A DNA stretch of 64,000 bases. Origin: Myxococcota bacterium (lineage in GTDB: Bacteria; Myxococcota_A; UBA796; CAJQPC01). The notes beneath the pieces were generated by a model. The model worked only from the letters and a program-made list of their open reading frames with translations. It was not told the origin of the DNA and did no database searches. The stretch spans positions 32,001-96,000 of the forward strand of contig DASCPX010000127.1 in NCBI GenBank assembly GCA_036012755.1, written 5' to 3'. Positions within the stretch are counted from its first letter, which is position 1. The number at the start of each line of letters is the position of its first letter. This document shows positions 59,075 through 61,688 of this stretch, in pieces. The position numbers and the translations under genes are program-made.

Positions 59075-59136
59075 TGCTTCTCCTCCGGGCGAGGGCGTAT
59101 CACCGGAACGAGGCAGCGTACGTACCCAGCGCCCGC

Positions 59137-59775
59137 TCAGAGCTCAGCGCAGGACTCCGGCTCCCGAGCGCAGCGCTTCATCGAGCCCTGGCAGGACTTC
59201 AGGTTCCTGGGCGAAGGCTGGAGATCCCCCGGGGGATCCTCGCAGCTGCCCTCTCCGAGCCGGTGCAGGGCCACGCCAGCCCAGAACCCGAGCGTGTCCC
59301 CGGCGCTGCTGTCCAGAGCCAGCAGCCGGCCGATGTCCTCTGGCGGCGGGCCCTCGGCGAGCCACCGCTCGGCGGCGTGCCCAGAGCAGTCCGAGGCGTA
59401 GAAGCCCGCGCTGGAGCACAGCTCGATCTGCTGGAACAGGTCGTCTGACGGGCAGAGGTCCAACATGCCGAAGCGACAGGCAGGGCCGCTGCAGAGTGCC
59501 AGCAGATGCTCTATGCCCGCGTCGCAGTGGTCCTCTGCCGCGGCGACCACGCAGGCATCCCGCCAGCGCCCGGCCAGCTCGCAGGTCCGCTCGGCGGCGC
59601 CCATGTCCCCTGCGCTCTCCGCCTGGGAGAAGGCACAGTAGGCGAAGGTCTCCGCGTCGTAGGCGTAGTCCGCGCACTCCGGAAGGGCGGCGACGGCCGT
59701 GGGGTCCGCCGCGGTGACCTCCGGGGTCGACTCCGTGCCACCTGCACAGCCGAGCCCGAGCACCATCAGCGTCAT
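59137..59775 (-). CDS. Cys-rich lipoprotein, unknown function
   Basis: MTLMVLGLGC signal, repeated C..AG.(W/F)...C units; ATG overlaps the upstream stop. Confidence 0.7.
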   Translation of the reverse strand: MTLMVLGLGCAGGTESTPEVTAADPTAVAALPECADYAYDAETFAYCAFSQAESAGDMGAAERTCELAGRWRDACVVAAAEDHCDAGIEHLLALCSGPACRFGMLDLCPSDDLFQQIELCSSAGFYASDCSGHAAERWLAEGPPPEDIGRLLALDSSAGDTLGFWAGVALHRLGEGSCEDPPGDLQPSPRNLKSCQGSMKRCAREPESCAEL

Positions 59776-60086
59776 CTGTTCAGGTGCGCCGCGTCGATGC
59801 GCTGGATGCACATCCGCCGCGCGTGGCGGTCCAGGACCTCGCAGATCTCCATCCCTCGCTCCCTGGCGATGGCCTGTCCGTGCTCCCGCATCCACCCGTC
59901 GACGGCAGCTCCACGGACCACGGGGTCCTCGATTCCAGCGGTGAGCTCCAGCAACCTCGCTGAGTCCTCTGCGCCCAGGCGCGCGATCTCCCCGGCCCGG
60001 CAGGCGTCCCGCTCCAGCTCCTGCAGCTCCGAGCAGTCGGGCTGCTCCTCTGGGCCGCAAGCGAGTGTCAGGAGCAGTGAGAACAC
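59772..60086 (-). CDS. Small lipoprotein, unknown function
   Basis: (V)FSLLLTLAC signal; TATCGT-N7-GTG start. Confidence 0.65.
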   Translation of the reverse strand: MFSLLLTLACGPEEQPDCSELQELERDACRAGEIARLGAEDSARLLELTAGIEDPVVRGAAVDGWMREHGQAIARERGMEICEVLDRHARRMCIQRIDAAHLNR

Positions 60087-60176
60087 GCCGGAGACGATAC
60101 CGCGGTGGTCGGACACAGGCCTGGATGCGCCCTGGGGGGCTTGCGGTGCCGCCCCGACCGGTGTGGGACTGTGCCC

Positions 60177-60230
60177 ATGAGTCACCTCGTCAGCTGTTGT
60201 TGTTGTCCCACCTCGGCCGAGGTGCGTTGA
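60177..60230 (+). CDS. Putative poly-cysteine leader peptide MSHLVSCCCCPTSAEVR
   Basis: ATG 60177, four tandem TGT codons (60195-60206), TGA 60228-60230, immediately upstream of cysH. Confidence 0.75.
   Translation: MSHLVSCCCCPTSAEVR
60209..60224 (+). promoter_or_regulatory. Hairpin masking a Shine-Dalgarno-like sequence upstream of cysH
   Basis: Perfect palindrome CACCTCGG-CCGAGGTG containing GAGGTG. Confidence 0.6.
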
Positions 60231-60240
60231 CGACTGCTGA

Positions 60241-60930
60241 CTGACGCAGACGACACGCCAACCACAGCTCTGCCGCCCCGGAACCGAGGACGCCCTCGAG
60301 GTCCTCGACTGGGCCACGCGCCGCTTCGCCGGTCGCCTGGTGCTCAGCACGTCCCTGGGACCTCAGAGCATCGTCGTGCTCGACCTGCTCACCCGCCTCG
60401 GGCGCGAGGTCGACACGGTCATGCTCGACACGGGCCTGCTGTTCAACGAGACCTACGCGCTGCGGCAGGAAGTCCAGGAGCGCTTCGGCGGCGAGGTGAA
60501 GCGCGCGACCGGCTGGTCGTTGAGGGAGCAGGAGGCCTCGATGGGCCCGCGGCTGTGGGAGCGCGACCCCGATCGCTGCTGCGCCCTCCGCAAGGTCGCT
60601 CCGCTGCGAGAGCTGCTCGGCGGCTACGAGGCCTGGATCTCCGGCATCCGCCGCGACCAGTCACCCGCCCGCGCCAACGCAGAGGTCGTCGAGTGGGACG
60701 AGAGCTTCGGCCTCGTGAAGATCAACCCGCTGGTGGCCTGGACTCGCGACGAGGTCCAGGCCTACATCCGGCTCCAGGGCCTCCCGGTGAACCCCCTGCT
60801 GTCCCAGGGCTTCGGCAGCGTCGGCTGCTGGCCCTGCACCCACCCGAGCGCCGACGAGCGCGGCGGACGTTGGGTCGGCCGCGCCAAGACCGAGTGCGGC
60901 ATCCATCTCTGCCCGAAGGAGACCACGTGA
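60241..60930 (+). CDS. cysH: APS/PAPS reductase, Fe-S (APS) type; start uncertain
   Basis: EVLDWA...STSLG, LDTGLLFNET, CCALRKV, GIRRDQS, SVGCWPCT, ECGIH. Frame open from CTG 60241. Confidence 0.9.
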   Translation: MTQTTRQPQLCRPGTEDALEVLDWATRRFAGRLVLSTSLGPQSIVVLDLLTRLGREVDTVMLDTGLLFNETYALRQEVQERFGGEVKRATGWSLREQEASMGPRLWERDPDRCCALRKVAPLRELLGGYEAWISGIRRDQSPARANAEVVEWDESFGLVKINPLVAWTRDEVQAYIRLQGLPVNPLLSQGFGSVGCWPCTHPSADERGGRWVGRAKTECGIHLCPKETT

Positions 60931-61688
60931 ACCGCTCCCACATCGGAACCCAGCGCCGCATCGCCGGGACGGTCGAGGCCGTCCGCGCCGAGCTCGACAC
61001 CTTCGAGACCGAGATCGCAGCGATCTCGCCAGAGGGACCCCTCCTGGTAGCGATGAAGCTCGACCTGGCGCACGTGCTGGTGGTCGGCGGCGGCGCGGTC
61101 GCCACCCAGCGGGCCCGCTCACTCCTGTACGCCGGCGCCCAGGTGCGGGTGGTCGCTCCGCGGGTGTCGCCAGAGCTTCGCAGGCGCATCGCCTGGGGGG
61201 AGATCGCGTGGTCACAGAGGCGCTTCGAGGACAACGATCTCGACCACATGCAGCTGGTGATGGTGGCCATCGACGACAGGGACGAGAGCCGTCGCGTAGC
61301 CTCGGCGGCCCGGTCGAGGTGCATCGCGGTGAACGTGGCGGATGTGCCCACGTTGTGCGACTTCTACATGCCGGCGAGCCACCGGGAGGGCCCGGTGCAG
61401 GTCGCCGTCTCGACCGGCGGAGTAGGCCCGGCGATCGCCGCGCGGGTCCGCGACCTGGTCGCGGCGGCCTTGCCCCCGGAGCTGGCGGAGGCCACACGGC
61501 GATTCGGCCAACTACGCAAGATCGTTCGCGAGCTCGAGCCATCACGAACCCGTCGCATGGAGCTCCTGGCGAGGATCGGGCGCAAGACGCCCTGGAGCGA
61601 GCTGGCCTGCCTGGAGAGCCGGAGCTCACTCGGAGCGGACGAGGCGCCTGCGGCGGCAGACCAGGAGCACCGCGAGGCCAGCGGCTGA
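60927..61688 (+). CDS. cysG: Precorrin-2 dehydrogenase/sirohydrochlorin ferrochelatase (CysG N-terminal, SirC/Met8 type)
   Basis: VVGGGAVA, VNVADVPTLCDFYMPA, AVSTGG. GTG 60927 after AAGGAG. No methyltransferase domain. Confidence 0.85.
   Translation: MNRSHIGTQRRIAGTVEAVRAELDTFETEIAAISPEGPLLVAMKLDLAHVLVVGGGAVATQRARSLLYAGAQVRVVAPRVSPELRRRIAWGEIAWSQRRFEDNDLDHMQLVMVAIDDRDESRRVASAARSRCIAVNVADVPTLCDFYMPASHREGPVQVAVSTGGVGPAIAARVRDLVAAALPPELAEATRRFGQLRKIVRELEPSRTRRMELLARIGRKTPWSELACLESRSSLGADEAPAAADQEHREASG

Follow-up and report, generated by a model that had tools for sequence, protein, structure and literature searches.

What is a 17-codon reading frame with four consecutive cysteine codons doing directly upstream of a sulfate-assimilation gene? 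The question is raised by a locus in a 64,000-nucleotide stretch of a Myxococcota genome (assembly GCA_036012755.1, contig DASCPX010000127.1, positions 32,001 to 96,000), here called the window, in which the short open reading frame (ORF) precedes cysH, a gene for an APS/PAPS reductase. The original prediction, made from the letters alone, read this frame as a cysteine-sensing leader peptide that, when a ribosome stalls on it, exposes a Shine-Dalgarno (SD) sequence hidden in an adjoining hairpin and so switches on cysH. Comparison with relatives gives a different answer for the switch: the window leader is probably the fossil sensor half of a cysteine transcription attenuator controlling a cysH–sulfite reductase–sirC operon, its switch half having been deleted. 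The comparison turns chiefly on L162, a metagenome contig of a sister species, whose CysH is 79% identical and which was the sole close relative returned by a metagenome scan. The elements of the locus that bear on the answer are these.

60139 to 60176, forward strand: 5' flank common to the window and L162, from their alignment; similarity stops upstream of about 60139.
60177 to 60230, forward strand: leader peptide ORF MSHLVSCCCCPTSAEVR*, 17 codons with an ATG start, assigned by conservation in the family.
60195 to 60206, forward strand: four tandem TGT codons, the putative cysteine-sensing site, from sequence and codon usage.
60209 to 60224, forward strand: perfect inverted repeat CACCTCGG/CCGAGGTG, directly 3' of the Cys run, corresponding to segments 1 and 2 of the L162 attenuator.
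60227 to 60244, forward strand: five-codon TTG ORF (TTG ACG ACT GCT GAC TGA), whose stop at 60242-60244 overlaps an in-frame CTG at 60241.
60231 to 60257, forward strand: conserved leader spacer RNA, from the leader stop to the deletion junction, by alignment to L162.
60258 to 60263, forward strand: CCAACC, a 6-nt direct repeat left in single copy at the junction of an 89-nt deletion, by alignment to L162.
60259 to 60930, forward strand: cysH (APS/PAPS reductase; PF01507, PAPS_reduct), extending from the codon that matches Gln6 in the L162 protein as far as the stop.

What the original prediction stated about this sequence holds throughout, including its remark that Cys is here mostly TGC. TGT makes up only 13.4% of the Cys codons of the genome (2246 of 16768, over 3137 crude high-GC3 ORFs), and four in tandem are therefore unusual; runs of at least four TGY number 128 in 6.73 Mb (68.4% GC, both strands, any frame), mostly off-frame within genes, and an exact run of four TGT occurs five times. 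The run ends seven codons ahead of the leader stop, and the CACCTCGG/CCGAGGTG hairpin that follows it folds by itself at −8.0 kcal/mol. An extra CACCTCG copy lies at 60183-60189, GTGGGAC (60163-60169) is exactly complementary to GTCCCAC (60205-60211), and the leader stop TGA (60228-60230) shares bases with the TTG at 60227, as TTGA. Eight nucleotides before the leader ATG sits GGGA (60165-60168), with AGGA at the equivalent place in L162; this is likely to be the leader's own weak ribosome-binding site (RBS), a better reading than one through the GTGGGAC pairing, and its conservation argues mildly for a leadered over a leaderless start. An Rfam search returned no matches at E up to 10.

That the frame is a leader at all is seen most clearly among relatives. 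Cysteine-rich short ORFs (sORFs), defined by at least three Cys in eight residues, an upstream start and a stop within 30 codons, were sought up to 500 nt upstream of cysH orthologues, which within the order were present in 19 genomes of 154 (cutoff E up to 1e-45). Such an sORF precedes 16 of the 19 (the misses are L036, L038 and L046) and 4 of 4 cysH orthologues in the sister family f8, against a detector background of 110 flagged among 3000 random windows of the genome (3.7%), or 0.5% for matches with a CCC run; more distant phylum-level orthologues were flagged in 3 of 19 cases, weakly. A C-terminal motif is shared, ...CCCCPTSAEVR* in the window, ...CCACLWTGVR* and ...CCACPATGVWTV* in relatives, and the ORF is in frame and always upstream of cysH, its residues varying across relatives except for the Cys cluster and the RNA-pairing tail. 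TGT accounts for 62 of 126 Cys codons over 23 leader ORFs (16 loci), compared with 13.4% in the coding ORFs of the window genome, a richness that may come from selection, either for codons read by wobble or for UGU runs able to pair. On these comparative grounds, to which L162 adds its own copy, the ORF of 17 codons is a true cysteine leader peptide of the cysH operon; the Cys run is conserved in frame upstream of cysH orthologues, and this part of the original prediction survives. A wider Cys regulon in the window genome is rejected, as none of four other Cys-related genes (two cysK-like, cysS and the second cysH) carries such a leader. A crude genome-wide screen for Cys sORFs yielded 33 candidates, most of them off-frame overlaps; another poly-Cys run of the same contig (C127 99460) was rejected as a leader, falling inside a minus-strand gene.

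The part that the leader may once have played is best read in L162. The leader homologue there, VITHICMCCCCATSAEVR*, has a GTG start where the window has ATG, and carries the same hairpin, CCACCTCGGC/GCCGAGGTG. Downstream of it lie an intrinsic terminator at 1113-1138, called by a terminator scan, with 10 pairs and then a TTTTCGTTTG tail, and the start of cysH, formed by AGGAG, 5 nt and TTG at 1186. The sequence GCCGAGG (segment 2) can pair either with CCTCGGC beside the Cys run (segment 1) or with the terminator's 5'-arm CCTCGGC (segment 3), and is therefore to be read as segment 2 of a transcription attenuator and not as a Shine-Dalgarno sequence. Computed duplex energies are −17.8 kcal/mol for 1:2, −13.8 for 2:3 and −18.7 for 3:4, and the leader region has a folding energy of −54.2 kcal/mol (z −3.48; none of 200 shuffles did as well). 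Leaders of the f8 orthologues have the L162 layout of sORF, then hairpin, then U tract.

Classical attenuators, such as trpL, hisL and leuL, combine a leader bearing tandem codons for the regulated amino acid with alternating segments (1:2, 2:3 and 3:4) and a U-tract terminator. L162 has these parts, a short ORF with tandem regulated codons close to its stop and four alternating complementary segments ending in a U-tract terminator, upstream of biosynthetic genes, and differs from the classical cases in the amino acid sensed, cysteine, and in its host phylum, Myxococcota. Its anatomy points to a trp-type transcription attenuator. Segment 1 (CCACCTCGGC), directly after the Cys codons, would pair with segment 2 (GCCGAGGTG), whose alternative partner would be segment 3 (CCTCGGC), forming an antiterminator; segment 3 would otherwise join segment 4 (GCCGAGGG plus the U tract) to make the intrinsic terminator. 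Under a shortage of Cys-tRNA the ribosome would be held on the Cys codons, covering segment 1, so that 2:3 forms and transcription reads through; with ample cysteine it would run to the leader stop just past segment 2 and cover that segment, and 3:4 would terminate transcription. Set beside this scheme, the window keeps a predicted short ORF with tandem Cys codons near its end and, directly downstream, cysH as a gene for synthesis of the sensed amino acid. Of the mutually exclusive hairpins, all present in L162, it has only 1:2; it is without segments 3 and 4, and the intrinsic terminator that L162 has between leader and first gene is missing.

This difference comes down to a single 89-column gap in the alignment of the window to L162, between 60257 and 60258. 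The stretch absent from the window (L162 1111-1199) comprises segments 3 and 4 with the terminator, the U tract, AGGAG, the TTG start and cysH codons 1-5 (MLLEN), and is flanked in L162 by CCAACC at 1111-1116 and 1200-1205. The alignment shows a deletion between these CCAACC repeats to have taken out terminator, RBS, start codon and five cysH codons. A scan of 59950-60400 gave no terminator-like site and no sigma-70 match, in agreement with the earlier remark that no U-tailed terminator is visible at the locus; the absence had been taken as a sign of translational or Rho-linked control, but it is explained by the 89-nt deletion and not by a translational design. Among sequencing runs containing the stretch, no RNA run was listed.

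The deletion also left cysH without its start. The window frame is open only from 60241, and its first in-frame ATG, GTG or TTG is the GTG at 60340 (codon 34); similarity to orthologues begins near 60283, ahead of that GTG. The residues LTQTTR that can be read in the cysH frame over 60231-60257 are former non-coding leader RNA and not ancestral cysH, because the 89-nt block, including the true start, has been deleted. Stops (TGA) occur in each of the three frames, at 60228, 60238 and 60242, and on sequence grounds they block all routes by a prfB-like +1 frameshift (CGT TGA C), −1 slippage or hopping, which were rejected. A 20-nt indel between GACGAC repeats (60229-60234 and 60249-60254) was likewise rejected as the cause of the frame offset, such 6-mer repeats occurring at 2.3% of positions; L162 also rules it out, the stretch being conserved leader RNA and the real event the 89-nt deletion. 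Nor is the frame break an assembly error: contigs of four sequencing runs (from four studies) match the window over 59900-60408 or more without a difference or a gap, and two of the runs, both covering 59900-60408, are not possible sources.

The hairpin was originally thought to hide the Shine-Dalgarno sequence of cysH, and this is not supported: the GAGG arm corresponds to the antiterminator strand of L162, where some 100 nt separate the leader hairpin from the actual RBS (AGGAG) and TTG start downstream of it. The switch proposed on that basis is not supported either, as the TTG at 60227 that would be unmasked is not in the cysH frame and reads only five codons, and the window has no RNA duplex sequestering the RBS of the downstream gene, as the mycobacterial type of poly-Cys control would have. 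The alternative pairings noted at first are present in the window, but L162 is without the second CACCTCG and its GTGGGAC:GTCCCAC equivalent loses 2 of 7 pairs. A five-codon TTG ORF overlapping the leader stop (TTGA) and ending in TGA is found at the same place in L162 (1079-1096), with different internal codons; this sharing may be chance, or a means of holding the ribosome on the RNA slightly longer past the leader stop. In the window, leader and 1:2 hairpin most likely survive as a remnant without regulatory function, cysH would be poorly translated or untranslated, and transcription would read through into the next gene.

That gene carries a second scar.

60927 to 61688, forward strand: chimeric SiR'-'SirC gene, whose GTG start overlaps the cysH stop (GTGA), with the SD sequence AAGGAG at 60916-60921.

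The downstream genes had been named cysH and cysG; the first is indeed a PAPS_reduct gene, but the second corresponds to CysG only over the SirC-like N-terminal part. A sulfite reductase gene (NIR_SIR_ferr) follows cysH in L162, and 4 of 5 orthologue loci examined have, after cysH, a NIR_SIR protein of about 700 aa and then a SirC-like gene. Residues 1-30 of the chimera match the N-terminus of the L162 sulfite reductase (57% identity, E 2e-7), and from about residue 36 it aligns with SirC N-termini (domains NAD_binding_7 and Sirohm_synth_M), with the junction near 61017-61035. A second deletion, of about 2 kb, thus appears to have removed the body of the sulfite reductase, fusing its first 30 or so codons to sirC. 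Searches of the window genome (95.95% complete) with PF01077 (NIR_SIR, sulfite/nitrite reductases) and with the sulfite reductase protein of one orthologue found no sulfite reductase, and PF01077 is present in only 2 of 22 genomes of the family.

The surroundings suggest how such an operon came to be there. The window cysH is a second, atypical copy in its genome, with no orthologue in 21 other genomes of the window family, 19 of which have a cysH-like match; the best match in the window genome is 41% identical. Two genomes of the same genus (L136 from G002, L137 from G001), compared with window 59075-61625, keep channel, unknown ORF, thioesterase and EamA genes in the same order without lipoprotein-like ORFs, leader, cysH or sirC between the conserved flanking genes. 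The leader-cysH-sirC cassette therefore looks acquired and specific to the window species, and the cysH operon of the window looks horizontally acquired and decaying. The genome itself, that of an uncultured organism, is myxobacterial, with 21 MYXO-CTERM matches where none of 14 control genomes has any. The probable relic sits in a sulfate-assimilation operon under dismantling, in a marine myxobacterial family mostly without sulfite reductase.

Among the orthologues, the Cys leader is not tied to transcription termination alone. Two Cys-rich leader sORFs stand in tandem before one cysH operon at eight loci (L003, L004, L031, L033, L037, L042, L045 and L139). In L003, L004, L031, L037 and L139 a hairpin with a U tract comes after the distal sORF, and in seven of the eight an RBS-hiding hairpin closes the proximal one. 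Across the order, proximal leaders finish with a conserved GC hairpin (CCCCCGGC...GCCGGGGG), after which comes an anti-SD/SD hairpin (CCTCCGG...CCGGAGG) 4-7 nt before the cysH start. The arrangement suggests that cysteine may be sensed in series, at the levels of transcription and translation. For the RBS-hiding leaders a six-segment relay (A:B, C:D and E:F against B:C and D:E) found partial support and was kept as a kinetic model only: in equilibrium folding the ribosome footprint hardly alters SD accessibility, and opening the SD costs less with a stalled than with a terminating ribosome in 11 of 14 loci and more in three (L035, L037 and L004). RNAalifold on the orthologue leaders returned only 11 pairs, 2 of them compensatory.

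Several observations sit less easily with the window locus as a mere remnant. Its leader core is 61/67 identical to L162, where the coding DNA of cysH is 524/672 identical, and of 42 columns that do not vary in 16 orthologues the window CysH retains 41, among them the CC...CxxC and ECGIH motifs; the deletions are therefore recent, or selection still acts on these sequences. Third-position GC of the window cysH (GC3) is 0.93, and the deleted allele is the only one in the four run assemblies. The in-frame CTG at 60241 overlaps the stop of the TTG mini-ORF, which has a plausible RBS (GAGG, with a 4-nt spacer), so that some translation of CysH by reinitiation at this CTG is possible. L162 is, moreover, the only close relative with the long form, and its terminator is predicted at equilibrium to persist with a ribosome on any Cys codon; the switch would therefore have to be kinetic, as in textbook attenuators.

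These points leave some room for a leader that still works, and one candidate target is the fusion gene instead of cysH. The remnant could tune SiR'-'SirC through Rho-dependent termination or mRNA decay on untranslated cysH, and this would fit the lack of an intrinsic terminator in 59950-60400, the roughly 690 nt without a canonical start, which would be unprotected RNA, the strong RBS (AAGGAG) and GTG start of the fusion gene and the strong conservation of the leader core. Rho has also been proposed for terminator-less actinobacterial Cys leaders (PMC1262725). Nothing in the window, though, ties leader translation to Rho loading, it is not obvious that Rho would be blocked by a ribosome pausing some 30 nt short of a long naked RNA, and the genome yielded no siroheme-dependent enzyme that would give the SirC-like product a role in sulfur metabolism. 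Regulation of this kind is unlikely.

Improbable as well is a working translational attenuator of cysH, the reading closest to the one first proposed, in which a Cys-stalled ribosome melts the hairpin, a 30S subunit starts at TTG 60227, stops at TGA 60242-60244 and reinitiates at CTG 60241 to make CysH. The TTG does have a GAGG at a 4-nt spacing, and the region 60160-60260 folds at −41.8 kcal/mol (z −1.99). In folding with a ribosome footprint, as the original prediction had proposed, opening GAGGTG..TTG costs 12.0 kcal/mol in free RNA and 5.4-7.5 kcal/mol once a ribosome occupies the third or fourth Cys codon, and the site's probability of being unpaired goes up from 0.15 to 0.69. The start so exposed is, however, not that of cysH, being out of frame with it. 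The cysH coding sequence is intact and proximal leaders of orthologues end in anti-SD/SD hairpins, as already described; poly-Cys sORFs of mycobacteria act through RBS sequestration (10.1101/834739). Against this, the hairpin and TTG mini-ORF pre-exist in L162, whose cysH is equipped with its own RBS and start behind a terminator, and they were therefore not built for a translational relay. The CTG has no RBS at a usable distance, GAGGTG ending 16 nt upstream, and a CTG initiates only very weakly. Were reinitiation to follow normal leader translation, expression would come at plentiful cysteine, the wrong sign, and no sulfite reductase was found in the genome to use the CysH product.

A variant would let the deletion itself create the switch, turning the transcription attenuator into a translational one, a relay of three ORFs by termination and reinitiation in which cysteine is still sensed. 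Once the terminator was lost, the former antiterminator strand (GAGGUG) and the UUG would serve as a start site buried in a hairpin whose lower stem is formed by the Cys codons; a paused ribosome would open this hairpin, the five-codon ORF would be read, and its UGA, overlapping the in-frame CUG, would hand the ribosome to the start-less, otherwise intact cysH. The same CTG and the same sequence of events are called upon, and the conversion is distinctly improbable. That the short form is ancestral, L162 having gained 89 nt and the window preserving an original compact design, could be entertained in that only one long-form close relative is at hand, but is very improbable: the 89 nt hold exactly the parts that more distant orthologues have (a terminator behind the sORF, followed by SD and start), they include the only canonical cysH start, and they are bounded in L162 by a 6-nt direct repeat of which the window retains one copy. 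A chance ORF, for which it could be said that runs of at least three TGY are common off-frame in a 68% GC genome (981 runs), or a Cys-rich micropeptide with its own function (metal binding, a modified peptide), is scarcely credible given an ORF conserved in frame, always upstream of cysH and variable outside the Cys cluster and RNA-pairing tail, the low detector background (3.7%, or 0.5% with a CCC run) and the lack of any such leader before the cysK-like genes, cysS and second cysH of the genome.

The proposed transcription attenuator is a mechanism of known kind, and what appears new is its occurrence in one class of Myxococcota, the window copy being most likely a truncated remnant. The original remark that no such system was known to be described in this phylum agrees with literature searches for a myxobacterial Cys leader-peptide attenuator, which found nothing relevant. 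In mycobacteria, attenuation by a poly-Cys leaderless sORF (Ms5788A, of the 'Cys ribulon') has been shown experimentally and acts by RBS sequestration (Canestrari et al., 10.1101/834739). With that system the present leaders share a poly-Cys sORF as cysteine sensor upstream of cysteine or sulfur genes and a paused ribosome that would remodel downstream pairing, and proximal leaders of the myxobacterial orthologues also end in anti-SD/SD hairpins. The mycobacterial sORFs are leaderless and unmask the RBS of the next gene, whereas here a weak GGGA or AGGA lies 8 nt before the start; in addition, the intact sister form in L162 uses an intrinsic terminator, and no regulon was seen in the window genome (0 of 4 other Cys-related genes checked).

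Comparative genomics has provided two further parallels. Cys leader peptides were predicted for cys/cbs operons in Actinobacteria (Seliverstov et al. 2005, PMC1262725), and the uORFC-8-2 motif was predicted upstream of cysS in Rhodobacterales, with tandem Cys codons in a stem and then a U-run terminator (Brewer et al. 2021, PMC8632094). Both resemble the present case as upstream ORFs with Cys codons found by comparison, and differ in phylum and in target (cys/cbs operons, cysS). The actinobacterial leaders have no visible terminator by design, in contrast to the window, where its absence comes from a deletion. Leader-peptide cysteine sensing is thus extended to Myxococcota, the experimental evidence so far being mycobacterial only, and in this lineage one Cys sensor would be wired to two outputs, intrinsic terminators and RBS-hiding hairpins, often in tandem before one operon. 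The locus also carries a caution: leader ORF and hairpin alone looked like a translational switch, and one close relative showed them as the probable front half of a textbook attenuator.

Some observations concern the flanks. A neighbouring gene diverges from the leader at close range.

59772 to 60119, reverse strand: divergent lipoprotein-like ORF with lipobox LLLTLAC and no Pfam match, from the ORF list and Pfam.

Only about 57 nt separate its start from the leader ATG. It is one of two successive small Cys-rich lipoprotein-like ORFs on the minus strand at 59137-60119 (lipoboxes LGLGC and LTLAC), divergent to the leader; neither matches Pfam or has a homologue among the same-genus genomes. 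In L162 the leader is preceded on the same strand by a gene for a TetR-family regulator (428-1015), which ends 11 nt before the leader ORF; the similarity of the window to L162 stops within the tail of this gene, at about 60139.

Among wider CysH relatives, only 5 of 80 genome_contigs loci were flagged within 500 nt. In 15 of these wider loci that were checked, cysH is closely preceded by the end of a long reading frame (uncurated) on the same strand, and the 500-nt leader test is therefore uninformative there. Outside Myxococcota, Cys-rich sORFs lie upstream of related cysH loci in metagenome-assembled genomes of Chloroflexota (L114) and Acidobacteriota (L047 and L062). In L047 the sORF is 2.4 kb upstream, before a 753-codon ORF that precedes cysH, and L114 has two Cys-rich sORFs in tandem.

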